Assembly (NCBI GenBank): GCA_035279905.1
Contig: DATEGZ010000257.1
Span: forward strand, 30,086-94,085
Length of the DNA stretch: 64,000 bases
Direction of reading: 5' to 3'
From: Vicinamibacterales bacterium
GTDB lineage: Bacteria > Acidobacteriota > Vicinamibacteria > Vicinamibacterales > SCN-69-37
The notes under the pieces are model-generated. The model saw only the letters and a list, made by a program, of their open reading frames with translations. It was not told the DNA's origin and did no database searches. Positions within the stretch are counted from its first letter, which is position 1. Each line of letters starts with the position of its first letter. Of this stretch, positions 5,785 to 60,382 are shown one piece after another. Position numbers and translations under genes: made by a program.

Positions 5785-5862
5785 TTGGGGACAGGTCTCG
5801 AGAAAATGACGCCGAGACCTGTCCCCTTTTAGCCCCGATCTGTGGAAAACAGATCCGTCCCC
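5751..5862. repeat. 112-bp near-perfect palindrome between convergent genes; probable bidirectional terminator or REP/MITE-like element
   Basis: Arms 5751-5800 and 5813-5862 are complementary apart from two T:T mismatches, with a 12-nt loop. Each arm holds its own sub-hairpin GATCTGT-N5-ACAGATC. Confidence 0.85.
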
Positions 5863-6917
5863 TAACAGATCCGCGGCAGCTGCTCGCCGGTGAGCATGTC
5901 GATGATGCGGGAGGCGCCAATCCGGCTGCCCGCGGTGACCAGGCCGGCGGGCGCCTCGGAGACGACGCCAATCACTGCCGCGCCGGCAGTCACGTCGAAG
6001 GCCTGCAGGACGCGCAAGGTGCGGTCGGCGGCGCCGCGCGGGACGATCGCGACGAAGCGGCCCTCGTTGGCGACGTAGAGCGGATCGAAGCCCAGAATCT
6101 CGCACGCCCCGCGGACGTCCTCGCGCACGCGAATCGCGATCTCCTCGATCCGCAGATGACACCGTGACGCCTCCGCGATTTCGACGAGCGACGTCGCCAG
6201 GCCGCCGCGTGTCAGATCGCGCAGGCAATGCACGTCGATGCCGTCGTCGAGAAGCGCGAGCACGGGCGCCGCAAGCGGCGCGCAGTCGCTCTCGATCGCC
6301 GACTCGAACTCGAGCCCCTCGCGCGCGCCCATGACCGCCATGCCGTGCCGCCCGATATCGCCGGACAGTACGATCACGTCCCCGGGCCGCACGCTCGCCG
6401 GCGCCACCACCTGCGAGTGCTCGATCGCCCCCACGCCCGCCGTGTTCACGTACAGTCCATCGGCCTTGCCGCGATCGACGACCTTCGTATCGCCGGTCAC
6501 CAGCAGCACTCCCGCCGCGCTGGCCGCTGCCTTCATCGAGGACACGACGCGTGCGAGCGTCGCCATCTCGAGTCCCTCCTCGAGGATGAAGCCCGCGCTC
6601 AGAAACAACGGCCGCGCCCCGCACATGGCCAGATCGTTGACCGTGCCGTTGACCGCCAGCGTCCCGATGTCGCCTCCGGGAAAGAACATCGGCCGGACGA
6701 CGTAGGAATCGGTCGTGAACGCGAGCGTTGCGCCGGCGATCTGCACCAGCGCGCCGTCATGGCGGGCGCCGAGCGCCGGATTGTCGAACGCGGGCACGAA
6801 CAGCTGCTCGATGAGCTGATGCGTCAGCGCGCCGCCACCCCCATGCGCCAATTGCACGTGCGTGTGCGAGCTGACCGGCACCGGACACGTGATGCCAGTC
6901 GAGAGATCAACGGCCAT
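5862..6917 (-). CDS. hypE: hydrogenase maturation protein HypE
   Basis: Start at [14 protein letters not shown] within ORF 5862..7043. AIR-synthase-like body and the canonical C-terminal ...GEQLPRIC. Confidence 0.9.
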
Positions 6918-10639: not shown

Positions 10640-11294
10640 GGCTCCTCAACACCGAGTGCTCGAGCCACTGGCACCACTCGCCGAGGCCCGCCCCGCTGGT
10701 ACACGACGTCTCGAAGACTTTCAGCTTCGGGTTGATCTGCCACGCGTGGCGGCGAATGGCGCGGATATCGGCGCCGACAAACGGCAGGAGATCCGTCTTG
10801 TTGATGACGAGCACCGAGGCGTTGCGGAACATCGCGGGATACTTCAGCGGCTTGTCGTCGCCTTCGGTCGTGCTGAGCACGACGACCTTCATCGCTTCGC
10901 CCAGGTCGTAGTTCGCCGGACACACGAGGTTGCCGACGTTCTCGATGAGGAGGAGATCGAGCGCGTCCAGGTCGAACTGGTCGAGCGCCTGCAGCACGAG
11001 ATTCGCTTCGAGATGGCAGCCGCCGTTGGTCACGATCTGGACGACGGGCACGCCATACGCCGCGACGCGGCGTGCATCGAGATCGGTCTGCACGTCGCCC
11101 TCGATCACGCCGACGTGGAGGGACCCCTTCAACCGCTCGAGCGTCCGCTCGAGCAGCGTCGTCTTGCCGGCGCCGGGCGAGCTGACGATGTTCAACACGC
11201 ATACGCCGTGCCTGGCAAAGCGCGTGCGGTTGACCGCCGCGATCGCGTCGTTCTTCTCGAGCACCTTGCGCTCGACCGTCACAATTTCGCTCAC
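10632..11294 (-). CDS. hypB: hydrogenase nickel incorporation GTPase HypB
   Basis: P-loop SSPGAGKTTLL and the G3E-family CH motif (GGCHLEA). GTG start overlaps the hypA stop (GTGA). Confidence 0.9.
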   Translation of the reverse strand: MSEIVTVERKVLEKNDAIAAVNRTRFARHGVCVLNIVSSPGAGKTTLLERTLERLKGSLHVGVIEGDVQTDLDARRVAAYGVPVVQIVTNGGCHLEANLVLQALDQFDLDALDLLLIENVGNLVCPANYDLGEAMKVVVLSTTEGDDKPLKYPAMFRNASVLVINKTDLLPFVGADIRAIRRHAWQINPKLKVFETSCTSGAGLGEWCQWLEHSVLRSHA

Positions 11295-11545
11295 GGCGTT
11301 TCCTCCTCGAGCTCGATGTCCGCGACCTGCAGCTCCTGCCCCGCTACGCGATCGATCGCGAGCGACGCGCGGTCATACGGCGTCTCCGACGTCACCGCGC
11401 TGAAGCACCACGCCAGCGAGTCGGGCTCGACACCCGCGAGCTCGCCGACGCGAACGCGCACCGACCGGACCAGCGGCGCCCGATCGACCGGCACGTACTG
11501 TCGGACGATGTCGAAGATGCTGTTCGCGAGGCTCAGCTCATGCAC
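11291..11545 (-). CDS. hypA: HypA-like nickel metallochaperone, short form lacking the zinc-ribbon module
   Basis: 84 aa beginning with MHELSL (the MHE nickel-binding N-terminus). No CxxC...CxxC pair is present. The position immediately upstream of hypB is canonical. Confidence 0.7.
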   Translation of the reverse strand: MHELSLANSIFDIVRQYVPVDRAPLVRSVRVRVGELAGVEPDSLAWCFSAVTSETPYDRASLAIDRVAGQELQVADIELEEETP

Positions 11546-11554
11546 GTCGTGCTC

Positions 11555-11953
11555 TCACTTCCGCCCGGCGAGCGACAGCACGTAGGCCGTCAGGTCCCAC
11601 GCGTCCTGCTCGCTCAAGCTCTTCCAGCTCGGCATCGCGGTGCCGCGCCGCCCTTCCCGAATCGCGAAGAACACGTGGCGCGGTGTCGCGGCCGCGTGCC
11701 ACCCGGCGTCCCTGAAATCACGCGGCGGTGGCTGGAGTCCCTCGCGCTGGAGGCCGTAGCCGTCACCCCGCACCCCGTGGCAGAGCGTGCAGTACTTCTG
11801 GAACAGCAGCGCTCCGCGCTCGGCCGCCTCCGGCGACGCCAGTGTCGTTGGCACCGCGATCGCGCGGTACTCGCGCGGGAGATCGCCGTCGGCGCTATGA
11901 CATGCCGACAAGACGAGCGACATCCAGCCCGCGATCAGGAGCGGCCGCTTCAT
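11555..11953 (-). CDS. monohaem class I c-type cytochrome, lipoprotein
   Basis: Start ATG 11953 within ORF 11555..12253. MKRPLLIAGWMSLVLSAC is a lipobox, CTLCH is the haem-binding site, and GTAMPSW carries the distal Met. Confidence 0.8.
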   Translation of the reverse strand: MKRPLLIAGWMSLVLSACHSADGDLPREYRAIAVPTTLASPEAAERGALLFQKYCTLCHGVRGDGYGLQREGLQPPPRDFRDAGWHAAATPRHVFFAIREGRRGTAMPSWKSLSEQDAWDLTAYVLSLAGRK

Positions 11954-12446
11954 GCCCCACCTTCGGACGACACCGGAACCCGATCGCCGCAGCCTCGTCC
12001 ACGACACGGTCCACCAGATCGTCGAGGGCGGCCGCGACGCGCGGCGACAGGCCGACGCCGAGCTCGATCGATTCGGGCACGAGGCCGAGGAGCACGACCC
12101 GGGTGGGATAGCGATCGCGCCAACGCGCGCCGTCGAGCAGGTCCGACACGCCGACCTGATGCGGAGACAGGCGCGTCGCCACTGCCGGCGCCACGTCGTC
12201 GCCGTCGAGCCGCACGAATGTCCCCGCAGGTCCATCGCCGCGAATCGCGTCAACGAGGATCACGGCCTCCGCCTCCTCCACATACGGAAGCAAGGCGAGA
12301 CCGAGCGTTCCGCCGTCCAGGACGTGCACGTCCGGCGGAACGATGAAGTGGTCGCGCAAGCGAACGACCGCCGCCGCTCCCAGGCCGTCGTCGCCGAGCA
12401 GGACGTTGCCCAGGCCCAGCACAAGGAGTGGCACGCGGTTACTCAT
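11895..12446 (-). CDS. hydrogenase maturation endopeptidase (HyaD/HybD family)
   Basis: MSNRVPLLVLGLGNVLLGDDGLG...ILVDA motifs. Its 3' end overlaps the cytochrome c start by 59 nt. Confidence 0.85.
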   Translation of the reverse strand: MSNRVPLLVLGLGNVLLGDDGLGAAAVVRLRDHFIVPPDVHVLDGGTLGLALLPYVEEAEAVILVDAIRGDGPAGTFVRLDGDDVAPAVATRLSPHQVGVSDLLDGARWRDRYPTRVVLLGLVPESIELGVGLSPRVAAALDDLVDRVVDEAAAIGFRCRPKVGHEAAAPDRGLDVARLVGMS

Positions 12447-13167
12447 CGACCTGACCTTCGCGGTTGATGAAGCGGTAGCCGGAGTACTCGAGATCTTCGG
12501 GCGGGACGAACTTGTAGCCGGAGAAGATCGATTCCATCGTCCCGTTCGCTTCGATGATCGACATCAACACGCCGCTGTAGACGTGATGGGCGGCGAAGCC
12601 CAGCAGCAGCCACATCACGACGTGATGAATCCAGCGCACCATCTGGAATCCGCCAAGCATCCCCGCGAACGACGCGAACCACCGGAACGGCGAGCCGACG
12701 TCGGCGTAGGGCGCGTGGAGCGCCAAGCCGGTGAGAATCGCGAGGAAATACAACCCGAACACCAGGACGTAGGTCAGGCCGGCCACCGGGTTGTGGCCGA
12801 CGAAGCCCGGCGGCTTGCGCAACGCAAACAGGTAGAACTTCAGCGTCGGCCAGAGCCCGCGGAAGCGCGACGCGTGGACGGGCAGGAACTTGTCCCACCG
12901 CGCGTACTTGTTGCCCGTGAACATCCAGATGATGCGCACGGCGACGGCGCCGATGAAGACGAAGGCCGTGTAGAGATGGATGGTGCGAATCCAGCCCATG
13001 ACGAACGACGTGCGCGCCTCTCCCGAAACCGTCATGAACGGATGCCCGATGTACAGGCCCGTCACCGACAGGACGACGATCGCGCCTGCGATGAGCCAGT
13101 GCGTGACGCGGACGGGAATCTGCCACACGTAGGTGCAGACCACCCGTTCCGGCAGTGCGGTCGTCAT
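12439..13167 (-). CDS. Ni/Fe-hydrogenase b-type cytochrome subunit
   Basis: Start ATG 13167 (MTTALPERVVCTYVWQIPVRVTHWL), overlapping the large-subunit stop (ATGA). Four TM helices with conserved His. Confidence 0.85.
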   Translation of the reverse strand: MTTALPERVVCTYVWQIPVRVTHWLIAGAIVVLSVTGLYIGHPFMTVSGEARTSFVMGWIRTIHLYTAFVFIGAVAVRIIWMFTGNKYARWDKFLPVHASRFRGLWPTLKFYLFALRKPPGFVGHNPVAGLTYVLVFGLYFLAILTGLALHAPYADVGSPFRWFASFAGMLGGFQMVRWIHHVVMWLLLGFAAHHVYSGVLMSIIEANGTMESIFSGYKFVPPEDLEYSGYRFINREGQVDE

Positions 13168-14870
13168 ACCACCCTCACGGCAGCCAGCTCGCGGCGCTTC
13201 GGATCGACGACGTGCACGCCGCAAGCCATGCAGGGATCGAACGAATGGATCGTGCGCAGGATTTCGATCGGCCGCTTCGGATCGGCGACCGGCGTGTTGA
13301 CGAGCGCTTCTTCGTACGGCCCGCGGTGGCCTTGCGCGTCGCGCGGACCGGCATTCCACGTGCTCGGCACGACGCACTGGTAGTTGCTGATGATCCCGTT
13401 CTTGATGCGGACCCAATGGCCGAGCGCCCCGCGCGGCGCCTCATGGAAACCCGCGCCCGTGGCCTCGGCGGGCCAGCTCGACGGATCCCACTTCGAGTTG
13501 TCGTGAATGCGGAGCTCGCCGCTCGCCATGTTGGCCGCGAGCGCGTCGACCCAGTCCTCGATCTTCTCGGCCAGCACCTGCGTTTCGATCCCGCGCGCCG
13601 CCACCCGGCCCAGCGTGGAGAACAACGCCTCGGGCCCAACGCCGAGCTTCTTCAGCACGGCGTCGACGAGGTCCTTCACTCGCGAATGGCCCGAGGCATA
13701 CGACACGAGCATGCGCGACAGCGGGCCCACCTCCATCGGCTGGTCGTCGTACCGCGGCGACTTGAGCCACGAGTACTTCTTCTCGACTTCGAGGTGTTCG
13801 TACGGCGGCTTGGGCCCGGTGTAATGGGGCGCGGTTTCGCCCTCGAGCGGATGGAGCGCCGCGCCATCGCCTTTCTGATAGTCGTACCAGGAGTGCGACA
13901 CGTATTCGGTGACCTTCGCAGGATCGAAGGGCTCGACCTTCGCGAGATTGCGCTGACGAATCACGCCGGCCGGCAGAAAGAGCCTGGGCTTGGCGGAGTC
14001 GTCGTCCGGATACTCGCCGTAGACGAGATAGTTGCCGACGCCCTGACCGTGACTCGCCCAGTCCTTGTAAAAGCTCGCGACGGCCAGCAAATCCGGCACG
14101 TACACGCGCGTCACGAAGTCGCGCGCCTTCGCGATGAGCTCCTTGCAGGCGGCGATCGTGCCCGCATTCAGCGCGGCCTGACTGTTCGGATCGACCGGCG
14201 TGGCCATGCCGCCCACGAGGAAGCTCTGCAGGTGCGGGTTCTTGCCGCCGAGCACGGCGTGCATCTTGATGAACTCGCGCTGCCAGTCGAGCGCCTCGAG
14301 GTAGTGCGCGACGGCCATCAGGTTCGCTTCAGGCGGCAGCTTGTAGGCGGGGTGTCCCCAGTACGCGTTTGCGAAGGGGCCAAGCTGTCCGCGATCCACG
14401 AAACCTTTGACACGATCGCGCACACCCCCGAAGTACGTGGCGCTCGACAGCGGCCAGTCCGAGATCGACTGCGCCAGGGCAGACGTCTTCGCTGGATCCG
14501 CTGAGAGCGCCGACACGATGTCCACCCAGTCGAGCGCGTGCAGGTGGTAGAAGTGGACGACATGATCCTGGACGCACTGCGAGGCGATGATCAGATTGCG
14601 CAGCAGCCGGGCGTTGGGCGGCGGGGCCGCGCCAATCGCGTTTTCCACGGCGCGAATCGACGTGATCGCGTGCACCGTCGTGCACACGCCGCAGATTCGT
14701 TGCGCGAACGCCCACGCGTCCCGTGGATCGCGGCCCTTGAGAATCAGCTCGATCCCCCGGAACATCGTCGACGAGGACCACGCGTCCTTGACGAGGCCGC
14801 CGTCGACTTCGGCCTCGATCCGGAGATGGCCTTCGATCCGCGTGACCGGATCGACCACGATGCGGCTCAT
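13164..14870 (-). CDS. [NiFe] hydrogenase large subunit (group 1, membrane-bound uptake type)
   Basis: VDPVTRIEGH..., RICGVCTTVH (L1) and DPCMACGVH (L2). A 15-aa C-terminal extension matches protease processing. Confidence 0.95.
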   Translation of the reverse strand: MSRIVVDPVTRIEGHLRIEAEVDGGLVKDAWSSSTMFRGIELILKGRDPRDAWAFAQRICGVCTTVHAITSIRAVENAIGAAPPPNARLLRNLIIASQCVQDHVVHFYHLHALDWVDIVSALSADPAKTSALAQSISDWPLSSATYFGGVRDRVKGFVDRGQLGPFANAYWGHPAYKLPPEANLMAVAHYLEALDWQREFIKMHAVLGGKNPHLQSFLVGGMATPVDPNSQAALNAGTIAACKELIAKARDFVTRVYVPDLLAVASFYKDWASHGQGVGNYLVYGEYPDDDSAKPRLFLPAGVIRQRNLAKVEPFDPAKVTEYVSHSWYDYQKGDGAALHPLEGETAPHYTGPKPPYEHLEVEKKYSWLKSPRYDDQPMEVGPLSRMLVSYASGHSRVKDLVDAVLKKLGVGPEALFSTLGRVAARGIETQVLAEKIEDWVDALAANMASGELRIHDNSKWDPSSWPAEATGAGFHEAPRGALGHWVRIKNGIISNYQCVVPSTWNAGPRDAQGHRGPYEEALVNTPVADPKRPIEILRTIHSFDPCMACGVHVVDPKRRELAAVRVV

Positions 14871-15979
14871 GACGCCTCCCCTTTTTGATCCGTCCTGGGC
14901 GCGTCACCCTTGCGGCCCGCGTGTTTGATGATCTGAATCAGGCCGTGGCCGGCGAACGTCGCCGCGACGCCGACGACGGCCGCCGCGCCGATCGTGTCCA
15001 CGCTGGACTGGATGCCGAACCCTGGGATGCCGGTGAGGTGCTGATAGAACGGCGTCATGCGATCCCAGAAGGCCGGCTCCGCACAGCCGATGCACGGATG
15101 GCCGCAGCCGATCGGCCAGTTCGTGCCGCCGTTCCAGCGCACGTTCGGACAGTTCTGGAAGCTGACCGGGCCCTTGCAGCCCATCTTGTAGAGGCAATAG
15201 CCGGCGCGATGACCCGCATCGCCCCAGGCTTCGACGTACTGCCCGGCGTCGAAGTGCGCGCGCCGCTCGCAGTTGTCGTGAATGGCCTTGCCATACGCAA
15301 AGAGCGGCCGCCGGTACTGATCGAGCGCCGGCCACTTCTTGAACGTCAAGTAGTGCACGATGAGCGCGGTCAGGTTCTCGACGTTCGCGGGACACGCCGG
15401 CAGGTTGATGAGGGTCTTGAGGCCCGGGACGGCGTCTGCGACGGCCAGCGCCCCGGTAGGGTTGGGCGCCGCAGCCGGGAGGCCGCCAAAGGCGGCGCAC
15501 GTGCCGATTGCAATCGTCGCAGCCGCGCCGCCACAGACCTCGCGTGCGATGTCGAGAGCTGAGCGCCCGCCAATTGTGCAATAGGCGCCGTCGGCGCCAG
15601 TCGGGATCGAGCCCTCCACCACCGCGATGTACTGTCCGGCGCGTTCTTTCACCGCCCGGGCGAGATTCTCTTCAGCCTGCGACCCGGCCGCCGCCATGAT
15701 CGTCTCGTGGTAGTCGACCGAGAGCACGTCGAGCACGACCTCGGCAGCGGTCGGACGCGAGGCACGCAAGAACGACTCGGTGTTCCCGGCGCAATCCTGG
15801 AATTCCAGCCACACGAGCACCGGCTTCTCGGCTTTGGCCACTGCACGCGCGATCTGCGCCGCCACGGCATCCGGGAGCGAGAGCGCCGCGGCCATCGTCG
15901 TGCAGAACGCCATGAACTCGCGGCGAGACACGCCGTGCCGTGCGAGCTCCGTCTTGACCCAAGAACGTTGCCCGCTCAT
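14867..15979 (-). CDS. [NiFe] hydrogenase small subunit, Tat-exported, C-terminal membrane anchor
   Basis: Start ATG 15979 within ORF 14867..16450, preceded by GGGAGG. Twin-arginine signal SRREFMAFCTTMAAAL. FeS motifs GTCAAFGG, ACPAN, IHDNC and CKGPVSFQNCP...GHPCIGC. Confidence 0.95.
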   Translation of the reverse strand: MSGQRSWVKTELARHGVSRREFMAFCTTMAAALSLPDAVAAQIARAVAKAEKPVLVWLEFQDCAGNTESFLRASRPTAAEVVLDVLSVDYHETIMAAAGSQAEENLARAVKERAGQYIAVVEGSIPTGADGAYCTIGGRSALDIAREVCGGAAATIAIGTCAAFGGLPAAAPNPTGALAVADAVPGLKTLINLPACPANVENLTALIVHYLTFKKWPALDQYRRPLFAYGKAIHDNCERRAHFDAGQYVEAWGDAGHRAGYCLYKMGCKGPVSFQNCPNVRWNGGTNWPIGCGHPCIGCAEPAFWDRMTPFYQHLTGIPGFGIQSSVDTIGAAAVVGVAATFAGHGLIQIIKHAGRKGDAPRTDQKGEAS

Positions 15980-16064
15980 CCTGCACCTCCCACGACCGCT
16001 ACCGCGAGTGTTGGAAGCCGAGGCGAAGGCTTGCGCCTGAAACCCCGAGCCGATCCGCGCTAAC

Positions 16065-16079
16065 GCATATGGCGTGCCA
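16065..16079 (-). promoter_or_regulatory. candidate sigma-54 (-24/-12) promoter of the hydrogenase structural operon
   Basis: The minus strand reads TGGCACGCCATATGC. The GG and GC dinucleotides have exactly the spacing of the consensus TGGCACG-N4-TTGC. It lies about 86 nt upstream of the small-subunit ATG. Confidence 0.45.
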
Positions 16080-16173
16080 GACCGGCACGGCCGCGGCGAC
16101 TCCGCGATGAAGTGAAATCGATGAAATCCAGAGATGAGGACTGCGAGTTTTCCCGCAGTGACCGGCGGAGTTT

Positions 16174-17238
16174 TCAGTGCTCGCCGAAGCGGCGAATCTT
16201 CCAGACGCCTGCCGAGACGACCCAGGACGCCACGAAGAGCGCGAAGACCGTGTAGCCGGTGGCCACCGAGTTCCAGTGCCGTACGGCTTCCCAGAACCGT
16301 CCCTGAAGACCGGGAAGGCGGCCCGCGGCGATCGACAGGAGCTCGATCGTACCGACGGAGAGCGCGACGACCACCGATAGACCAGTCACGGTCAGGTTGT
16401 AGAAGATCTTGCGCATCGGATTGGCGAATGCCCAGCCGTAGGCTCCGCACATGACGATGCCGTCCGCGGTGTCGAGGAGCGTCATCCCGGCCGCGAACAC
16501 GATCGGCAGGGTGAGGACGGCGGCGAGCGGCAGCGACTGGGACGCCGCCAGGCCTGCCACGGTCAGAAGCGCGATCTCGGTGGCCGTGTCGAAGCCCAGC
16601 CCGAACAGAAACCCGACCAGGTACATCTGGCTCGGGTGCTTGACGAGCCTGAACAAGCCGCCGAACCAGCGCGAGATCAGCCCTCCCTGGAGCAGGACGG
16701 CCTCGGCGGCTTCGGCGTCGTACTCTCCGCGGCGCATCCGGCGGAACACGCGGTAGACATCGACCATGACGAGGAGATTGAGGCCGCCAATGAGATAGAG
16801 GAACAGGCCGGAGATCGTGGTACCGACGAGCGATCCGATTTCATGCAGGCGCGGCAGCTCGCGGGCGATCGTTTGCGTGGTGAGCGCCAGGGTGAGCGTC
16901 ATCAGCAGCACAACGCTCGAGTGGCCCAGCGAGAAGTACAGGCCCACGCCGAGCGGACGCCGGTTTTCGTTCATCAGCCGCCGCGCGGTGTTGTCGATCG
17001 CCGCGATGTGGTCGGCATCGAACGCGTGCCGCAGTCCAAACGCATAGGCCAGGCCCGCCAGTCCGAGCAGCGTCGGGTGCGCCGCGCCGCCAAACCACCA
17101 CACGCCGCCCCAGCCAACGACATGCAACACCACGATCGTGAGCACGAGCGGCAGGATTTCGCGCGCGAGAGTCCGAGCCGGACGGCCAGCGGTCATCTTC
17201 CCCGCTATCCTTTCACATTTCGTGCCGCGCGCGAGCAC
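16174..17238 (-). CDS. NiCoT-family high-affinity nickel/cobalt transporter (HoxN/HupN/NixA type)
   Basis: Signature GLRHAFDADHIAAIDN, 8-TM layout. The start could instead be ATG 17196 (MTAGRPARTL). Confidence 0.85.
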   Translation of the reverse strand: MLARGTKCERIAGKMTAGRPARTLAREILPLVLTIVVLHVVGWGGVWWFGGAAHPTLLGLAGLAYAFGLRHAFDADHIAAIDNTARRLMNENRRPLGVGLYFSLGHSSVVLLMTLTLALTTQTIARELPRLHEIGSLVGTTISGLFLYLIGGLNLLVMVDVYRVFRRMRRGEYDAEAAEAVLLQGGLISRWFGGLFRLVKHPSQMYLVGFLFGLGFDTATEIALLTVAGLAASQSLPLAAVLTLPIVFAAGMTLLDTADGIVMCGAYGWAFANPMRKIFYNLTVTGLSVVVALSVGTIELLSIAAGRLPGLQGRFWEAVRHWNSVATGYTVFALFVASWVVSAGVWKIRRFGEH

Positions 17239-46144: not shown

Positions 46145-46157
46145 GACGAGTGCCTAA

Positions 46158-46252
46158 CTTAGAACTTAGAACTCAAAACTTAGAACTGCAGATTGTCACG
46201 CGTAATTCGTGTGATCCTCTGTAGTTCTAAGTTCTAAGTTTCAAGTTCTAAG
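46158..46252. repeat. AT-rich imperfect palindrome built from TTAGAAC-type heptamer arrays, filling a convergent junction
   Basis: Left arm CTTAGAA CTTAGAA CTCAAAA CTTAGAA CTGCAG. Right arm CTGTAG TTCTAAG TTCTAAG TTTCAAG TTCTAAG. Flanked by stop codons at 46142-46144 and 46254-46256. Confidence 0.85.
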
Positions 46253-46253
46253 T

Positions 46254-49200
46254 TTATCTAGGTGTTGCCGTTCCGTGTGACCGCCGCGGTTCGGCGCCGC
46301 CGGTGACGGTGCCCTTGGCCGCGTTGATGACCGCCGCGGCCGCGTAGCCGTACATCACCTCGCCCTTGCGGCCGACCTTCTGGAACGTGTGGCCGCGCGC
46401 CTCGAGGTCCGCGAGCATCGCGCGCGAGAAGCGATCCTCGATCTGCACGCGTGACCCGCCGCCCGGCCCGCCGCCGATGAGGAACCGCGGCGCCTCGATC
46501 GCGTGCTGCGCGTCCATGTTGCCGTCGACGACGTTGAGAATCACGTCGTAGACCGACGCGGGTATCCAGTTGTTGCCGGCGCACCCGACCGCGAGCCGCG
46601 GCGTGAAGCCCTGAATGCCGTAGCGTCCCGGATCGGTCGTGCTGGGCGCGAACACCAGCGTCGGCACGCTCGTCGAGCTCGACCGCATCAGCGGCAGCAT
46701 CGATCCAAATCCCGTCCCGCGCCCGCCGCGGAAGTGATCGTTGTAGAGGAAGCCGAGCCCCTTCGAGACGTAGAAGTTGCCGCCCCACGTCGAGAGCGTC
46801 TGTGTGAAGGCAATCATGTTGCCTTCCGCGTCCGCGACGACGAACGCGGTCGTGCCGGTCTGGATCGGCCCGGATTCGTCTTCGGATTGATATGCAGTTG
46901 GCACAAGAGCGGTGCCACCGCCGCCGCGTCCCCCGCCCTGCGCCGTGTACACCTTCTTCGGATCGATCAGCTTGTACCGCTCGAGCGCATGCGGCGCCTC
47001 GAGGTGGTTCCCGAGATCGACAGGCCAGCGCTCCGGATCCGCGATGCGGCCGCCGCCGTCGCGCACGCGCCACGCTTCGATCGCGTAGTGCAGGTAGTCC
47101 GGATCGGTCGTGTAGGTCGCGCCTGGCTTCGGCAAGTAATTGTCGAGGATGTTCAGCGTCTCGACCATCTGCGCGCCGTTCGAGACCGGCGGCGGCACCG
47201 AGTACACCGCGTGCCCGCGGTAATGCCCGGCGAGCGGCTTGCGCTCCATCGCACGGTACTGCCCGAGGTCCTCGAGCGTGATCACGCCGCCGTTCGCGGC
47301 CATGTCGTCCGCGATCTTGCGCGCGAGCGATCCGCGGTAGAACGACTGCGCGCCTTCCTTTGCGATCGTCCGCAGCGTTTCCGCGTAGTCCTTGTTGACG
47401 AAGCGATCGCCGGGCTTCGGCACCTTCCCGCCCGGGAGGAACAGCTTCGCCGATTCGGGATACTTCGCCAGCGACGCGCGGCCTTCGGCGATCGACGTCG
47501 GCAGCGCCTCGTCGAGCACGAAGCCCTCGTCGGCCAGCTTGATCGCCGGCGCGATCAGATCCGCCCACTCGACTTTCTTGCTGCCGTACTTCTGATACAG
47601 CAGGTCGAGCCCCGCGACGACGCCAGGAATGTTGGCGACCGTGGGACCATCATTGGCCGTGCGCGCGCCCGTCGCCGTGAAGAGCTTCGGGTTGTCGCCC
47701 GTCGCGTGCCCCGGCGTCATGTCCTTGTATTCGATGACGACCGGCTCGGTCATGCCCTTGAGAAACAGAATCGCCTGGCCGTCGCCGCCGACGCTCGTCG
47801 CATCCGGCTCGACGACGCCGAGCGCGAACGCGACGGCGATGCCGGCGTCGACGACGTTGCCGCCCTTCTCGATCATGAGCGCGCCCGCTTGCGAGGCGAG
47901 CGGGCTGCCGGACGCGACGACTGCGCGCGACGACTCAACGTCCGGCTTGATGAGCGGCTGCTCCCCGATCATCTTGTCGATGACGGCTTCAGCCGACGCG
48001 GCGTCCTTGGCCTGAGCGGCCTGCGGACGATACTTCGCCGCGAGCGCATCCCAGGCCGCCGCCGACGGCCCGGTCGCGTAGTACATCGTCTTCAACGTCT
48101 GCCAGACCTGGTCGAACGTGGACGTCCAGCGCGCCGCGGCCGGCGCAGGCAACTGGAGTGCGGTCGCTGATTCGTCGACCGCGCGCGGCGCCGCCAGCCG
48201 CCACAGCGCGTACTCGGACGCGGCGCTGAACGCCATCGGCGGATCCGCGTCGTTGCGATCGGGATTGCCGTTGTAGCCGGCGACCGCCGTCGGGAACGTC
48301 GCGACGAGCAGCGTCTGTCCGTCGGGCGACCAGGCGGGCACGCCGGGATGACGCGAGGTCAGGACCGGCGTGTCCGCGACGGTCGAGGTGGCGGCAGGAT
48401 CGCCGCCGTCGGGCGGCGGGCCTCCGCGTCCACCGCGTCCGGGACCGCCTGGTCCTCCGCCGCGGCCCGCCGGCGCGTCGAGCGACGGCACGGCCGTTGC
48501 CCACACCGCGCTTTGATTTCCGCGCATCGTCACGTACGCGAGCCGCGCGTTGTCGGGCGCCCACGCCGGATGCGCTTCCGTGCCCGCGAGGCGCGTCACG
48601 CGCACCGAACGCGGATTCGACGCGGCCGCGTCTCTCGCGGGCAGTTCGCGCACCCAGATGTCCGACTCGTTGCCCGCTTCGGGCTCGCGGGTCGAGACGT
48701 ACGCAATGAGCTTGCCGTTTGGCGAGACGCTGCCCTGCCACTCTTCGGCGGTGTCTGGTGAGATCTTCGTCGTCGTCCCGGCGTGCTCTTCCTGGGTGTA
48801 CACGAACAGCTGCCACGCGCCCTTGGGCTCGCGATGCGAAAAGACGATTCGCCGGTCGTGCGTCCACGACGGCCACCGCTCGTCGCCGGGCATCGACGTG
48901 ACGCGAATGGCCGCGCCGCCTTTCGCGGGCGCGATCCAGATGTCGAATTGGCCGTTCTGCTCGGCGCTGAAGGCGATCGATTGGCCGTCGGGCGACCACG
49001 CGGGGTCGCGCTCGACGGTCAGGTCAGTCGGAGAGGTCACGACGCGCCTGGCGTCCTTGCCGTCCGGCGTCATGGTCCAGATCGCGTCGAACCAGCTCGC
49101 GGCGAGGTGCTTGCCGTCCGGCGCCCATGCGGCCTCGCGCACGCCGGTCGGCGTTTGCTCGCTCGCGCTGCGGAGGGAAACGGACGCGAGCAGCAAGAGG

Positions 49201-49268
49201 ATGACGCCGGGAGTAGTTTTTACAATTTTACGTCTGCGGGAAATTGTAAAAACTACTCCCGGCGTCAT
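46254..49268 (-). CDS. ggt: PD40/TolB-like beta-propeller fused to gamma-glutamyltransferase
   Basis: Real start ATG 49268, preceded by GGAG. PD40 repeats (DPAWSPDGQSIAF, SPNGKLIAYVS, HPAWAPDNARLAYV, PAWSPDGQTLLV), a Gly/Pro linker, then the GGT domain with nucleophile context QTGTTAFVVADAEGNMIAFTQTLS. The upstream 232 aa of ORF 46254..49964 are off-frame tkt sequence. Confidence 0.8.
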   Translation of the reverse strand: MTPGVVFTISRRRKIVKTTPGVILLLLASVSLRSASEQTPTGVREAAWAPDGKHLAASWFDAIWTMTPDGKDARRVVTSPTDLTVERDPAWSPDGQSIAFSAEQNGQFDIWIAPAKGGAAIRVTSMPGDERWPSWTHDRRIVFSHREPKGAWQLFVYTQEEHAGTTTKISPDTAEEWQGSVSPNGKLIAYVSTREPEAGNESDIWVRELPARDAAASNPRSVRVTRLAGTEAHPAWAPDNARLAYVTMRGNQSAVWATAVPSLDAPAGRGGGPGGPGRGGRGGPPPDGGDPAATSTVADTPVLTSRHPGVPAWSPDGQTLLVATFPTAVAGYNGNPDRNDADPPMAFSAASEYALWRLAAPRAVDESATALQLPAPAAARWTSTFDQVWQTLKTMYYATGPSAAAWDALAAKYRPQAAQAKDAASAEAVIDKMIGEQPLIKPDVESSRAVVASGSPLASQAGALMIEKGGNVVDAGIAVAFALGVVEPDATSVGGDGQAILFLKGMTEPVVIEYKDMTPGHATGDNPKLFTATGARTANDGPTVANIPGVVAGLDLLYQKYGSKKVEWADLIAPAIKLADEGFVLDEALPTSIAEGRASLAKYPESAKLFLPGGKVPKPGDRFVNKDYAETLRTIAKEGAQSFYRGSLARKIADDMAANGGVITLEDLGQYRAMERKPLAGHYRGHAVYSVPPPVSNGAQMVETLNILDNYLPKPGATYTTDPDYLHYAIEAWRVRDGGGRIADPERWPVDLGNHLEAPHALERYKLIDPKKVYTAQGGGRGGGGTALVPTAYQSEDESGPIQTGTTAFVVADAEGNMIAFTQTLSTWGGNFYVSKGLGFLYNDHFRGGRGTGFGSMLPLMRSSSTSVPTLVFAPSTTDPGRYGIQGFTPRLAVGCAGNNWIPASVYDVILNVVDGNMDAQHAIEAPRFLIGGGPGGGSRVQIEDRFSRAMLADLEARGHTFQKVGRKGEVMYGYAAAAVINAAKGTVTGGAEPRRSHGTATPR
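49201..49268. repeat. palindromic element, copy 1 (27-nt arms ATGACGCCGGGAGTAGTTTTTACAATT)
   Basis: Arms 49201-49227 and 49242-49268 are perfectly complementary, with a 14-nt loop. The arms are identical to those at 59185-59253. Confidence 0.9.
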
Positions 49269-49276
49269 TTCGTCTC

Positions 49277-51130
49277 CTACAGCTCTTTGACGGCAGCGGC
49301 GATCGCGCGTGCGCTGATCCCGTAACGGTCGAGCAGCTCGTCGGGCGCGCCGCTGCGCGGAATCTCGCGAACGGCCAGCCGCCTCACGCGGAAGCCCTGA
49401 TCCCAGACCGCCTCGCTCACGGCATCGCCCAGCCCGCCGTGCGCGTAGTGATCCTCGACCGTGATGATGCGGCCGTTCGTCGCGCGGCCGGCGGCGACAA
49501 GCCCATCGCGATCGATCGGCTGGACCGAGTACGCGTCGATCACGCGGATGTTGGTGCCGGCCGCCTTGAGCGTGTCGTACGCCTTGAGCGCTTCGAACAC
49601 GGTCACGCCGGCGGCAACGATCGTCGCGACGTCCTTGTCGCTCTGCCGCAGCGTCTTCGAGCCGCCTGCCTTGAATGTTTCGTTCGCGTCGTAGATGACC
49701 GGCGTCTTCGGACGCGACGTGCGGATGTACACGGGCCCGGGCACGGACGCCGCGATCGCCATGAGCCGCGTCGCGCTCATGCCATCGCACGGGTACAGCA
49801 CGGTGCAGTTCGGCACGCCGCGCGCCATCGCGAGATCCTCGAGCGCCATCTGCGACGGCCCGTCCTCCCCGATCGACACGCCGGCGTGCGATCCGGCCAG
49901 CTTGATGCCGAGGTTCGAGATGCCGGCCATGCGGATGAAGTCGCTCGCGCGCTCGAGGAAGCACGCGAACGTCGACGGGAACGGAATCGCGCCGCGCGCG
50001 GCCAGCCCCATCGCCGCGCCGATCATCACCTGCTCGGCGATGTAGACCTCGTAGAACCGATCCTGATGCGCGTGCTCGAACTTCTCGCTGAACGTCGAGT
50101 TGCCGACGTCAGCGTCGAGCGCGACGATGCGCCGATCGATCGCGCCGAGCGCGGCAAGCGCCGCGCCGTACGCCTCGCGCGTCGCCACCAGCTCGCCCGG
50201 CTTGTACGCCGGCGCCGGCAGCACCTTCTCGAACGCCGGCAGCGGCCCCTCGACGCGCCGGCTGGCCGGCCTCGGAATCTCCGGCTTCGGATCGGACGTC
50301 TTCACGACCTGGCTGTTGAGTTCCGCCAGCGCCTGGTCGAGCTCGGCGCCCTTCTTGAGCGCCTTGCCGTGCCAGCCTTCCTTCCCTTCGAAAATCGAGC
50401 AGCCCTTGCCCTTGACCGTGCCGGCCACGATCATCGTCGGGCGGCCTTTGGTTTTGCGGGCTTCGTCGAGCGCCTGGAGGATTGCCGCGAGGTCGTGTCC
50501 GTCAACCGCGATGGCGTGCCAGCCGAACGCGTTCCAGCGCGACGTGAACGCCGACAGATGATGATCCCACTGCGTCGCGCGGCTCTGTCCGAGGCCGTTG
50601 ACGTCTGTGATCGCGCAGAGATTGTCGAGCTTTTGATTGGACGCGACTTCCGCCGCTTCCCAGACGGAGCCTTCAGCGCTCTCGCCGTCGCCGAGCAGCA
50701 CGTAGGTGCGGTAGTCGGACTTGATCCGCCGCGCGTTGAGCGCGATGCCCACGGCCGCGGCCAGTCCCTGGCCGAGCGATCCGGTGGCGACGTCGACGAA
50801 CGGCAGGCGCGGCGTCGGATGGCCTTCGAGGTCGGACGTGATCTTGCGCAGGTTGAGCAGATCCGCGCGCGGAAACAATCCCGCCTCGGCCCACGCCGCG
50901 TAGAGAATCGGCGCGCCGTGGCCCTTCGACAGCACGAAGCGATCCGCTTCGGGGTGCTGCGGGTCCTTCGGATCGAACCGCATCTCGGCAAAGAACAGAG
51001 CCGCGACGATCTCCGCCGCCGACAGACACGTCGTCGGGTGGCCGGAGCCGGCTTCCGAGGTCGAGGTCACGGAGTCGATCCGGAGCTGCGTCGCGAGGTT
51101 GTGGAGAACAGCGAGCGATGGTGCGGACAT
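49277..51130 (-). CDS. tkt: transketolase
   Basis: 617 aa. SGHPTTCLSAAEIV (ThDP motif region), GDGESAEGSVWEA and the C-terminal transketolase domain. Confidence 0.92.
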   Translation of the reverse strand: MSAPSLAVLHNLATQLRIDSVTSTSEAGSGHPTTCLSAAEIVAALFFAEMRFDPKDPQHPEADRFVLSKGHGAPILYAAWAEAGLFPRADLLNLRKITSDLEGHPTPRLPFVDVATGSLGQGLAAAVGIALNARRIKSDYRTYVLLGDGESAEGSVWEAAEVASNQKLDNLCAITDVNGLGQSRATQWDHHLSAFTSRWNAFGWHAIAVDGHDLAAILQALDEARKTKGRPTMIVAGTVKGKGCSIFEGKEGWHGKALKKGAELDQALAELNSQVVKTSDPKPEIPRPASRRVEGPLPAFEKVLPAPAYKPGELVATREAYGAALAALGAIDRRIVALDADVGNSTFSEKFEHAHQDRFYEVYIAEQVMIGAAMGLAARGAIPFPSTFACFLERASDFIRMAGISNLGIKLAGSHAGVSIGEDGPSQMALEDLAMARGVPNCTVLYPCDGMSATRLMAIAASVPGPVYIRTSRPKTPVIYDANETFKAGGSKTLRQSDKDVATIVAAGVTVFEALKAYDTLKAAGTNIRVIDAYSVQPIDRDGLVAAGRATNGRIITVEDHYAHGGLGDAVSEAVWDQGFRVRRLAVREIPRSGAPDELLDRYGISARAIAAAVKEL

Positions 51131-58248: not shown

Positions 58249-59183
58249 TGTTGGACGCGCTGCCCAAAGCGTTCTTCTCCATCCTGGCGGGCAGCCACAC
58301 CCTCAAGAACGCAGCCTCACGCTACGGCATGCGCCGGCCGGACAGCTTCGCGCGCCGGTTCGTGGCCGGCGAGCACGTCGGCGACGCGATCGCCGCCGCC
58401 CAGGTGCTCGAGCAGAACGGCCTCGCGGTGACGCTCGACCTGCTTGGCGAAAGCGTCAGCTCGACCGAAGCCGCCGGTGAAGCGACACGGGCGTATCTCT
58501 CGACGATCCAGGACATCGAACGCGGCGGAATCAGCCGCAATATCTCGCTCAAGCTCACGCAGCTGGGCCTGGGCGTCGATCGGGCCACCTCGGTCGACAA
58601 CCTCCGGCGCGTGCTCGACGTGGCCGGCAAGCACGGGTTCTTCGTGCGGATCGACATGGAGAACTCGCCGTACACCGCGCAGACGCTCGAGACGTTCGAG
58701 ACGACGTGGGGGATCGGGTATCGCAACGTCGGCGTGGTGCTCCAGTCGTATCTCCGTCGGTCGATGAGCGACGCCAGGCGGATGATCGCGCTCGGCGTGC
58801 CGGTCCGGCTGGTGAAGGGCGCGTATCGCGAGCCGCGCAGCGTGGCGTTTCAGCGAAAAACCGAGGTCGACGCGTCGTATGTCGCGCTGATGGAAGTGCT
58901 GATGCGCGAGGGCAAGTCGCCCGCGATTGCCACGCACGACCCGCACATGATCGACGCGACGCGCCAGTTCGCGACCGCGCACGGCATCGGCAAGGAGCAC
59001 TTCGAGTTCCAGATGCTGTACGGCATCCGCCGCGACCTGCAGGCGCAGCTCGCCAACCAGGGCTATCGCGTGCGCATCTACGTTCCGTTCGGCCGCGAAT
59101 GGTTCCCGTATTTCATGCGCCGGCTCGGCGAGCGGCCCGCGAACGCGAGCTTCGTGCTGAAGAGCTTGATGCGGGAGAGGTGA
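58248..59183 (+). CDS. proline dehydrogenase (monofunctional)
   Basis: ATG 58248 overlaps the upstream stop (TGATG). Contains SLKLTQLGL, RIDMENS, VRLVKGAY and FEFQMLYGIR. Confidence 0.85.
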   Translation: MLDALPKAFFSILAGSHTLKNAASRYGMRRPDSFARRFVAGEHVGDAIAAAQVLEQNGLAVTLDLLGESVSSTEAAGEATRAYLSTIQDIERGGISRNISLKLTQLGLGVDRATSVDNLRRVLDVAGKHGFFVRIDMENSPYTAQTLETFETTWGIGYRNVGVVLQSYLRRSMSDARRMIALGVPVRLVKGAYREPRSVAFQRKTEVDASYVALMEVLMREGKSPAIATHDPHMIDATRQFATAHGIGKEHFEFQMLYGIRRDLQAQLANQGYRVRIYVPFGREWFPYFMRRLGERPANASFVLKSLMRER

Positions 59184-59184
59184 A

Positions 59185-59253
59185 ATGACGCCGGGAGTAG
59201 TTTTTACAATTCGTGTGTCGCACGCGAATTGTAAAAACTACTCCCGGCGTCAT
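59185..59253. repeat. palindromic element, copy 2; fills the gap between convergent stop codons
   Basis: Arms 59185-59211 and 59227-59253 are identical to copy 1. The 15-nt centre CGTGTGTCGCACGCG is itself self-complementary. Pairing extends (GAA/TTC) into both flanking stop codons. Confidence 0.9.
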
Positions 59254-59254
59254 T

Positions 59255-60382
59255 TCATTTCACCCACGCCCGCGCCACATCCACCAGAATGTCGCGACAG
59301 GCGTAGACGTCGTCGACGGTCACGTACTCCTCGGTGCTGTGCAGCCCGGCGCCGCCGGGGCCGAGCAGGACTGACGGCGTCCCGGCCGCCGACAGAATCG
59401 CGGCGTCCGTCCAGAACGACATGCCCATGGGCGTCGCCGAGCGTCCCGCCCGCGCGAGCGCCCCGCCCACCGTGCTCGTCAACGGGTGATCCGCGCCGAC
59501 CAGGTGCGCGGGGCGATACGTGACGAGCCGCGCCTCAGCCCGGAACTCGGGATCGTCGCGCTTGAGCCGCTCGAGGATGGTGTGGACCTCGTGGAGCACG
59601 CTCTGGCCGTCCTCGCTCGCCACCGTGCGGCGCTCCATTTCGAGCGTGCACCGGTCCGGGTAGCTGCTGAGCTCGCGGCCGCCGCTGATGAGCGACGCGT
59701 GCAGCGATCCGGTCCCTTGAAACGCGACCGGCGACTGCGCGCGCAGCTCCCGGTCGCGCCCTTCGAGCGCTGTCAACACGCGTCCCATCCGCGCGATCGC
59801 GTCACGCCCGTCCTCGGGCCGGCTGCCGTGCGCCGCCTTGCCATGCGTCACGATCTGGAGCCACGCGAAGCCCTTGTGGCCGATGGCGAGGCCGAGATCC
59901 GTGGGCTCGGTCACGATCGCGGCGTCCGCGTGCCAGTCCTTGACCAGCGCTTCCGCGCCTAAACTCTCGTACTCTTCGTCGACGACCGCCGCGATGATCA
60001 GACGCCCGCGGGTCCACTCCCTGGCGAGCACGCCCGCGGCCGCGATCATCGCCGCGACGCCGCCTTTCATGTCCTGCGATCCGCGCGCGTAGAGCCGGCC
60101 GTTGCTGACGCGCGGGACGAACGGATCGGTCATGCCCTCGACGCCCACGGTGTCGAGGTGGCCGCAGAACATCAGCGACGGTCCGGGCGCTCGCCCCTCC
60201 AGCACGCCGATCACATTGGGCCGGCCCGGCGCGGCTTCCTGGAGCACGACGTCGAGTCCCGCGCCCGCCATGGCCGCCCGCGCGACCTCAGCCGCCTCGG
60301 CTTCGCCGGGCGCGCCCGGCACGAGCGACGGGTTGACGGAATTCGCGGCCACGAGGTCGCGAAGCAGCGGTAGCGGGTCCAT
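59255..60382 (-). CDS. M20-family metallopeptidase (ArgE/DapE-like deacylase)
   Basis: 375 aa. Contains GHLDTV, RGSQDMKGG, VVDEEYES and the dimerisation-domain layout. Confidence 0.8.
   Translation of the reverse strand: MDPLPLLRDLVAANSVNPSLVPGAPGEAEAAEVARAAMAGAGLDVVLQEAAPGRPNVIGVLEGRAPGPSLMFCGHLDTVGVEGMTDPFVPRVSNGRLYARGSQDMKGGVAAMIAAAGVLAREWTRGRLIIAAVVDEEYESLGAEALVKDWHADAAIVTEPTDLGLAIGHKGFAWLQIVTHGKAAHGSRPEDGRDAIARMGRVLTALEGRDRELRAQSPVAFQGTGSLHASLISGGRELSSYPDRCTLEMERRTVASEDGQSVLHEVHTILERLKRDDPEFRAEARLVTYRPAHLVGADHPLTSTVGGALARAGRSATPMGMSFWTDAAILSAAGTPSVLLGPGGAGLHSTEEYVTVDDVYACRDILVDVARAWVK

Follow-up and report, generated by a model that had tools for sequence, protein, structure and literature searches.

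Where a repeated hairpin lies across the expected start of a gene, the question arises of whether the gene now begins within the repeat or behind it. Such a hairpin lies between the transketolase gene tkt and a PD40/Tricorn–GGT fusion gene (referred to here as GGT) in the stretch of DNA analysed, a window of 64,000 nucleotides. Public names of its proteins assign the window to an uncultured member of the Vicinamibacterales (Acidobacteriota). Palindromic and restricted to a narrow lineage of that order, the element is a previously undescribed repeat of the REP/REPIN/MITE kind. The explanation that we favour, with a probability of about 0.68, is that a small non-autonomous palindromic repeat with a habit of lying at gene ends has been captured as the start of GGT.

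Two copies of the palindrome in the window

The 27-mer ATGACGCCGGGAGTAGTTTTTACAATT has exactly four exact matches in the 64-kb window, arranged as two inverted pairs: 49201–49227 (+) with 49242–49268 (−), and 59185–59211 (+) with 59227–59253 (−). Against these four stand 0 matches after dinucleotide-preserving shuffles, which bears out the report in an earlier note on this DNA of identical 27-nt arms around differing loops at 49201–49268 and 59185–59253. An identity of 30 nt (GAAATGACG...) is shared by three of the four arms, the arm entering the GGT coding sequence having 27 nt only. The arm is described as about 30 nt, (T)GAAATGACGCCGGGAGTAGTTTTTACAATT, enclosing a short centre that varies between copies; the centres of copies 1 and 2 are unrelated in sequence.

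Copy 1 (variant V1; 49201–49268, minus strand) forms a perfect 28-bp stem with a 12-nt loop, comprising, in sense orientation, the 5′ arm (49241–49268), the loop (49229–49240) and the 3′ arm (49201–49228). Copy 2 (59181–59257, no strand assigned) forms a perfect 33-bp stem (59181–59213 paired with 59225–59257) with an 11-nt loop, and is embedded in an extended imperfect palindrome (59173–59265) with 45-nt arms that are 91% complementary. The inner half of each arm is AT-rich in a window of about 68% GC. Folded as RNA, either strand of the two copies is predicted to reach between −58 and −78 kcal/mol (z-scores between −10 and −14), with −62 kcal/mol for copy 1.

Filling exactly the gap between the convergent genes for Pro_dh (+) and an M20 peptidase (−) is copy 2, with both stops, the Pro_dh TGA (59181–59183, +) and the M20 TGA (59255–59257, −), inside its outermost pairs.

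The tkt–GGT junction

Upstream of copy 1 is tkt (49277–51130, minus strand), ending in a TAG (49277–49279) that is new relative to its orthologues, the proteins of which are 3–5 residues longer. Downstream is the GGT gene (46254–49268, minus strand; 1,004 aa from the ATG of the element), with its putative start ATG (49266–49268, minus strand) at the outer end of the 5′ arm of copy 1. Five nucleotides upstream of this ATG, and overlapping the tkt TAG, is a Shine–Dalgarno-like AGGAG (49274–49278, minus strand), which is outside the 27-nt core yet part of the sequence that was inserted or replaced. Translation of the minus strand gives MTPGVVFTISRRRKIVKTTPGVILLLLASVSLRSAS..., in the same frame as the GGT open reading frame. 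Copy 1 reads MTPGVVFTI-SRRRK-IVKTTPGVI in this frame, making codons 1–23 element-derived; they are followed by a retained ancestral signal-peptide core and cleavage region, LLLLASVSLRSAS. The retained core, LLLL(AFAAG)ASVSLRSA, is in frame with the ATG. The 8-nt distance between the tkt stop and the ATG and the common frame of the element and the hydrophobic core, both described in the earlier note, are as stated there.

Alignment of occupied and empty junctions (A1) shows homology ending at ...GAGCT in tkt and restarting within the signal peptide, close to its L-S codons. Between these points the ancestral junction has lost about 54 nt, comprising the last 3–5 tkt codons and stop, the Shine–Dalgarno sequence, the GTG start and the MRFIR codons (the first ~6 of the signal peptide). 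In its place are the TAG stop, the overlapping AGGAG, a 5-nt spacer (6 nt in L006, the closest relative, described below) and the element with its in-frame ATG. In relatives, a GGAGG Shine–Dalgarno sequence precedes the GTG start at the same spacing. Orthologues have N termini of the form MRFIRLSAFLLAFAAGASVSLRSA, beginning M/VRFIRLSAFLLAFAAGASVSLRSA..., and all carry signal peptides. The earlier note had allowed that orthologues without the element might start at a conserved codon also present here; comparison of the junctions shows that their GTG start (VRFIRLSAF...) no longer exists in the window.

Among the in-frame ATG, GTG and TTG candidates, only the element ATG has a Shine–Dalgarno sequence. 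A Sec-type signal peptide has a positive n-region, a hydrophobic core of about 10–15 residues and small residues at −3 and −1. As assessed by hydropathy and charge alone, the product of the ATG shows a 9-residue peak of 3.2 in hydropathy (GVILLLLAS), with five K/R residues ahead of it and SAS|EQ behind it; its n-region, of about 21 residues, is unusually long. In the product of the TTG at 49194–49196, MLLASVSLRSAS, hydropathy does not exceed 1.6 in any 9-residue window and no charge lies upstream (in the window genome). This agrees with the claim of the earlier note that no other start gives a signal peptide, the ATG alone combining a Shine–Dalgarno sequence with charges before the hydrophobic core. 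For the same genome, the ENA gene call has the same ATG start and a length of 1,004 aa; the JGI gene call in L006 has the downstream TTG start. The junction is of relevance to gene-start annotation because gene callers disagree on where GGT begins.

On this alignment, the element probably overwrote the GGT translation start and would now supply the start codon, and the inserted DNA is the most likely source of both start codon and n-region. The proposal of the earlier note that the element donates the ATG and a charged n-region is thereby kept for the ATG (the ancestral Shine–Dalgarno sequence and start are deleted, and the ATG has the sole Shine–Dalgarno sequence) and amended for the n-region, in which RRRK comes from the copy-specific loop rather than from the repeated arms.

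Occupied and empty sites in relatives

An orthologous copy, with a loop differing by one substitution, is present at the copy-1 site of L006 (95% GGT identity), where the perfect palindrome is longer (GGAGACTGAAATGACG...CGTCATTTCAGTCTCC). At 79% GGT identity (L007 and L008), the tkt–GGT junctions are empty, with the genes 23–26 nt apart, a GGAGG Shine–Dalgarno sequence and a GTG start. The M20/Pro_dh junction is also empty in L008, where the genes overlap by 26 nt, and the element is absent from the 10–34-nt gaps at this junction in three genomes with about 90% M20 identity (L017, L018 and L020). Empty sites are thus found in five related genomes in all.

Two further relatives (L015 and L016; 92% M20 identity, dS of 0.47–0.67) have a 118-nt composite at the M20/Pro_dh junction. 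Compared with the window arm, the outer palindrome of this composite, ATGACCTCGGGAGTCGTTT(T)GC, has three core pairs altered, each on both sides, and a fourth both-sided change in L015 is in the GAA/TTC extension just outside the core. Nested in the loop of this outer palindrome is a smaller copy, AAATGACGCCTGTAGTTG-TCTTGT-CAACTCCAGGCGTCATTT. The M20 stop of L015 is the TGA of ATGAC in the element.

A third locus, on a soil metagenome contig (L003), has the element between fabH and a convergent isoamylase-like gene. The loop of this copy, 20 nt long, bears no relation to the other loops, its arms carry GACTCC/GGAGTC in place of GACGCC/GGCGTC (a both-sided change that keeps the pairing), and it has AGGAC and no ATG. 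The isoamylase-like gene stops at the TAG within GAGTAG of the arm. A habit of lying at gene ends is apparent in that Pro_dh, M20 (in both the window and L015) and the isoamylase-like gene all stop in the element or at its edge.

A scan of 185,579 species-representative genomes for an exact 21-mer of the arm gave a single match, in a metagenome-assembled genome of 35% GC, and an exact 21-mer scan of metagenomes gave the same low-GC contig and one real extra locus (L003). The low-GC match (L001/L002) falls within an HMGL/LeuA-like gene, where identity with the L003-type arm runs over 26 nt that code for QTPGVVFTI of an RDGEQ motif. Its chance is estimated at ~0.5%; because homology stops at both its ends, it was taken as a probable coincidence and rejected as the source of the arm. 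The exact variant is known from three independent loci, with two copies in the 64-kb window. Searches for degenerate copies in the window and 21 loci (blastn-short and a fuzzy regular expression) found none beyond those listed here, except for the outer 10-mer AAATGACGCC in the loop of a palindrome at 5751–5862. No representative among 5.8 billion protein clusters shared words with the translated arms, which says little about further copies because the window GGT is itself a member of its cluster (P0001) and not the representative, and a plasmid similarity search and a scan of viral collections gave no match to the element.

Comparison of these loci shows that the element is duplicated at unrelated loci, is absent from the corresponding sites of relatives and can sit in the loop of another copy. 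The view of the earlier note that this is a dispersed palindromic repeat is borne out by the third locus, the orthologous copy, the nested variant and the empty sites; the contrary possibility that it had allowed, an element confined to two sites, does not agree with the copies in L003 and L006 and the variant in L015. We infer mobility from this distribution because the gene calls and Pfam matches of the 64-kb window include no transposase (RAYT, TIRYT or other; Y1_Tnp) and no target-site duplication is visible at the flanks of the element. Integron attC sites, CRISPR and invertons were rejected as identities for it, there being no R/L core sites, no direct repeats and a spacer (12–20 nt) too short to invert.

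Selection on the genes and on the stem

Site, loop and replaced segment are common to the window genome and L006, which places the insertion before their split. After that split, dN/dS has been 0.092 for GGT (dS of 0.25) and 0.039 for tkt (dS of 0.22). Indels in the signal-peptide region are of 6, 15 and 21 nt, all multiples of three. The low GGT ratio and the in-frame indels argue that the protein is made and constrained, and a dN/dS of 0.09 rules out a GGT pseudogene. The signal-peptide core is still coding, which is hard to reconcile with a start downstream of it.

In an alignment of five copies of the element, 95.9% of cells are paired and 5 of the 31 pairs have changed on both sides; neither value was reached in any of 500 shuffles, and slid controls were 35–51% paired. 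Of 56 arm positions, 2 differ between the window and L006, where about 11 would be expected at the synonymous rate (P = 4 × 10⁻⁴), a level close to the average rate of coding sites (P = 0.24 at 7%). Both substitutions in L006 give G–U pairs in the sense RNA, for which the chance is about 1 in 4. The arms of copies 1 and 2 are still identical (P = 6 × 10⁻⁶ if neutral, 0.02 at the coding-site rate), although the two copies separated no later than the window and L006. Together, these comparisons point to constraint on both sequence and pairing, or to homogenisation between copies. Template switching at quasipalindromes can also yield pair-preserving changes, and those seen here could come from templated mutation rather than from selection on RNA.

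Proposed mechanism

Insertion of the element, with deletion or replacement of about 54 nt, removed the tkt stop and the intergenic Shine–Dalgarno sequence, and with them the GTG start and ~6 initial codons of the ancestral signal peptide. Translation of GGT would now start at the ATG of the 5′ arm, behind the AGGAG that overlaps the new tkt TAG, and the arms and loop would be translated as a 23-residue extension, in which RRRK of the loop would serve as the n-region and the final GVI would lengthen the hydrophobic core.

With the ATG at the base of a 28-bp stem, initiation is proposed to depend on tkt ribosomes for that reason: ribosomes ending tkt 8 nt upstream probably open the base of the stem and thereby allow GGT to be initiated by translational coupling. 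Such coupling is probably ancestral, because tkt and GGT are also only 23–26 nt apart in relatives. The earlier note had proposed that the hairpin could terminate tkt transcription and would bury the ATG, as a conflict and possible switch over GGT expression, and the fold predicted at −62 kcal/mol makes this plausible. A hairpin of that predicted stability over the ATG should inhibit initiation strongly, and a perfect 28-bp RNA helix is a plausible substrate for RNase III. Cleavage by RNase III would part the AUG from the rest of the open reading frame, so the conflict would be real in principle.

At its other sites, the hairpin RNA is proposed to act as a 3′-end barrier or a bidirectional terminator-like structure, which is probable but the least supported step. 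In copy 2, the GC-rich stem segment CGCCGGGAG followed by UCAUUUCA on both strands may form a bidirectional terminator poor in U-tract. A scan of 45–61 kb for consensus terminators and promoters reported neither copy, and downstream of the copy 1 stem is CCUCUUGCUG, with no canonical U-tract. An outward promoter in the AT-rich arm (TACAAT, TTGTAA) was considered and rejected, the motifs having the wrong order and spacing and the scan being negative.

The junction thus gives an unusually clean natural case of a selfish hairpin repeat that probably overwrote a translation start and the n-region of a signal peptide in a gene that survives, supported by the empty sites, the orthologous occupied site and the selection statistics. 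It also offers a testable case for initiation where the AUG is at the foot of a 28-bp helix, with coupling set against RNase III or termination.

Alternative explanations

The element might instead be purely intergenic, with GGT starting at the TTG at 49194–49196 or at a later GTG, the hairpin acting as a terminator or attenuator and the open frame arising as a by-product of high GC content. The JGI call in L006 follows this arrangement, open reading frames stay open by chance in a genome of 68% GC (the GGT frame runs on without a stop as far as 49964), the stem would stand in the way of initiation at the ATG, and many REPs annotated at N termini are really extragenic (PMC3733652). Neither the TTG nor the GTG has a Shine–Dalgarno sequence, however, whereas the ATG has AGGAG at the spacing seen in relatives; nor does the TTG product have the hydrophobic window or charge described above. 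Orthologues all have signal peptides. With the signal-peptide core and cleavage region conserved, changed by in-frame indels only and part of a protein under a dN/dS of 0.09, we consider this arrangement unlikely, and capture of the repeat as the GGT start is preferred.

The pairing data bear on two further explanations. A conserved structured RNA with a host function, either a cis-regulatory hairpin or a small RNA rather than a mobile or selfish repeat, would account for the pair-preserving changes, the G–U-compatible substitutions in the sense strand, the very stable folds and an evolution of the arms about six times slower than that of synonymous sites. It is difficult to square with empty sites in close relatives at both loci, with the unrelated flanking genes (tkt/GGT, Pro_dh/M20 and fabH/isoamylase) and loops, with one copy nested in another, or with a comparison to Rfam that gave sub-threshold miRNA-hairpin noise and no match; the element is also fully palindromic and therefore has no preferred strand. 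We regard it as very improbable. Scarcely any weight is given to a site at the DNA level for a protein (a nucleoid protein, gyrase or IHF, as for BIMEs, or a recombinase or HUH enzyme), with the sequence conserved rather than an RNA fold, even though it is compatible with the capture of a mobile repeat. The arms of copies 1 and 2 are identical despite copy 1 predating a split at a dS of 0.25, and an unrelated palindrome has the 10-mer AAATGACGCC in its loop, both of which such a site would explain; but the window holds no candidate protein, and L015 changes three core pairs and one GAA/TTC extension pair with pairing kept, which indicates structure over sequence.

A bolder version of the capture explanation, which as a whole we hold to be rather doubtful, would make the elements self-nesting palindromic mobile DNAs of Vicinamibacterales that home to hairpin centres at gene boundaries, their end motif (A)AATGACGC(C) being recognised by a sequence-specific HUH/RAYT- or TIRYT-like enzyme. 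They would be portable gene-boundary cassettes, with stops in two frames on both strands, an open third frame led by ATG and a bidirectional terminator-like stem, of which the one at tkt–GGT was captured as a hairpin-gated, tkt-coupled start.

Other palindromes at gene ends

Several other palindromes were noted in the window and its relatives. One at 5751–5862 has 50-nt arms and carries the outer 10-mer of the element, AAATGACGCC, in its loop (four matches to this 10-mer, with 0.06 expected). Its arms carry the motif GGGGWSAS, reported for inverted repeats flanking genes for TIRYT, the TIR-associated tyrosine transposase (PMC3733652). A search beyond the window for more of the same genome gave one 5.2-kb contig, which breaks inside the palindrome at 5751–5862. 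Another palindrome (46156–46254) is directly after the GGT stop, and in L021 a different nested palindrome of about 175 nt is between tkt and an intact ancestral GGT start. In this clade, several palindrome families seem to have landed repeatedly at gene boundaries, and the presence of different palindromes at the same two junctions points to gene ends as hot spots for such elements.

Comparison with known repeats

A search of the whole window against Rfam at gathering thresholds gave 0 matches, with sub-threshold miRNA-precursor hairpin noise at the element, and no literature was found on such repeats in Vicinamibacteria. By analogy, the closest described kind is REP/REPIN. A REP is defined by an unpaired GTAG or CGTC at one end of a short stem-loop, and REPs occur in tens to thousands of copies per genome. 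In each arm of the element, an 11-bp inner stem, TTTTTACAATT, has GTAG (GTCG in L015) directly on its 5′ side, an arrangement in keeping with GTAG-REPs; GTAG is expected by chance in about 10% of 27-mers. Unlike the unpaired REP tag, the GTAG of the element is paired with CTAC of the other arm, and its helix is continuous over 28–33 bp, extending 13–19 bp beyond GTAG, whereas a REP stem is of 5–13 bp or consists of two separately folding REPs. The element also differs in having no RAYT known, an apparently low copy number (2 per 64 kb) and an AT-rich inner half.

REP/REPIN elements and GTAG-tagged palindromic repeats have been described previously (Di Nocera et al. 2013, PMC3733652; Bertels & Rainey 2011, PMC3116915). 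REPs are found between convergent or unidirectional open reading frames, within ~20 nt of 3′ ends, where they donate TAG stops. Their stems show G–U pairs and compensatory changes, their loops and spacers vary, and they can be embedded in larger palindromes or, occasionally, lie at N termini (PMC3733652). Similarly, the element is a short palindrome near the 3′ ends of convergent or co-directional genes that supplies stops, including the TAG of GTAG. Positions of this kind are occupied by copy 1 (8 nt after the tkt stop), copy 2, L003 (TAG of GTAG) and L015 (TGA of ATGAC). It also shares with REPs the compensatory stem changes, G–U pairs, variable loops, embedding and an occasional position at the N terminus of an open reading frame.

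A REPIN or REPtron comprises two REP units in inverted orientation with a spacer between them, each unit being a small palindrome, and a cognate RAYT (a Y1/HUH transposase) flanked by the repeat; the RAYT is single-copy and may lie anywhere in the genome. The element has an inverted pair of arms with a variable spacer; no internal palindrome was noticed on reading the arm by eye. A MITE has terminal inverted repeats and a direct target-site duplication and derives from a parent IS. Here the flanks are inverted-symmetric (GAA...TTC; GGAGACTGAA...TTCAGTCTCC in L006) rather than direct repeats, and no parent IS was found for the element.

An intrinsic terminator is a modest GC-rich hairpin followed by an unpaired U-tract. 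Between convergent stops, copy 2 resembles a bidirectional terminator in having a GC-rich segment (CGCCGGGAG/CUCCCGGCG) followed by U-rich UCAUUUCA on both strands. It differs in that its stem is far longer, UCAUUUCA is itself paired and the same sequence is present at unrelated loci. No unpaired U-tract is present at either copy, in agreement with the consensus scan, and termination at the element may occur without one.

Small palindromes with consequences for RNA are known elsewhere: Correia/NEMIS elements of Neisseria are processed by RNase III, SPRITE of Streptococcus pneumoniae forms a terminator-like structure, and the pneumococcal repeats BOX, RUP and SPRITE insert into one another (PMC10969869). 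Like Correia and SPRITE, the element is a small palindrome that would be co-transcribed with its neighbours as a long RNA hairpin, and its nesting recalls the mutual insertion of the pneumococcal repeats. In Correia elements the interior is conserved, the target TA is duplicated and the terminal inverted repeats are defined, whereas in the present element nothing between the arms is conserved and no target-site duplication is visible.

For the capture itself, the nearest parallel is provided by the Rickettsia palindromic elements (RPEs), palindromic repeats translated in frame within functional host proteins (PMC10969869). As with RPEs, the repeat at tkt–GGT is palindromic and in frame, and would be translated as part of a host protein under selection. 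RPEs are, however, about 100–150 bp long and internal, whereas here a 68-nt hairpin replaced the 5′ end and would give the start codon, Shine–Dalgarno context and n-region, a donation that we did not find documented for RPEs. Recruitment of selfish DNA into a gene, as proposed here, is tidy but not unprecedented, and with the element a new family joins the palindromic repeats, from a soil lineage that is abundant but little studied.

Other palindromes and element copies at gene junctions

Located at the tkt–GGT junction of a relative (L021, whose GGT has 81% identity) is a nested palindrome of ~175 nt (2690–2864, −123 kcal/mol) unlike the element under study. Its arms are composed of tandem 9-mers (CATGAAGGA) and contain GGAATGACGC. 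This junction has therefore been hit independently by another palindrome family. Downstream of the palindrome, the ancestral Shine–Dalgarno sequence and GTG start of GGT are intact, and the JGI gene call for this GGT begins 37 codons too late.

At the other end of the PD40-GGT gene in the window is a palindrome (46156–46254) whose 47-nt arms are 81% complementary and consist of tandem 7–8-mers (AACTTAGA...); it is flanked by the stops of the DUF3617 gene (46144) and of PD40-GGT (46254–46256). In the relative L008, the gap downstream of the GGT stop is just 9 nt (12962–12970).

At the M20/Pro_dh junction of L015 (3181–3273) and L016 (1127–1219), a diverged copy of the element holds a second copy within its loop. 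The L016 inner copy carries two additional mismatches and is apparently in decay.

Over 26 nt (L001/L002, 1703–1729), an HMGL/LeuA-like gene of a 35% GC MAG labelled Acholeplasmataceae is identical to the arm of the third, metagenomic locus (GACTCC/GGAGTC type); the shared stretch codes for QTPGVVFTI, part of the conserved RDGEQ motif. This match is probably due to chance (about 0.5%). Given the AT-rich inner arm, it is still odd.

The hydrogenase region and the palindrome at 5751–5862

The window encodes a NiFe hydrogenase large subunit together with hypF, hypB, hypD, hypE-like and NicO nickel-transporter genes (8300–17238), and no mobile-element genes are present within these coordinates. 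A further palindrome (5751–5862) occupies precisely the space that separates an Amidohydro_2 gene on the plus strand from a hypE-like AIRS gene on the minus strand (stop at 5862–5864). Its 50-nt arms are 94% complementary, and the predicted folding energy of its RNA is −109 kcal/mol.

Contig ends in long perfect palindromes or repeats are expected for de Bruijn assemblies. One short-read ENA contig of the same genome (L014) ends inside this palindrome (window ~5820), and another short-read contig from the same organism (L005, 2326–2350) terminates 25 nt into copy 2 of the element.

The 12-nt loop of palindrome 5751–5862 carries AAATGACGCC, known from the element under study as its outer 10-mer; this 10-mer has 4 matches in the window versus 0.06 expected. 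The arms of palindrome 5751–5862 include GGGGACAG, a match to GGGGWSAS, the motif reported for the TIRs of tyrosine-transposase (TIRYT) genes (PMC3733652).
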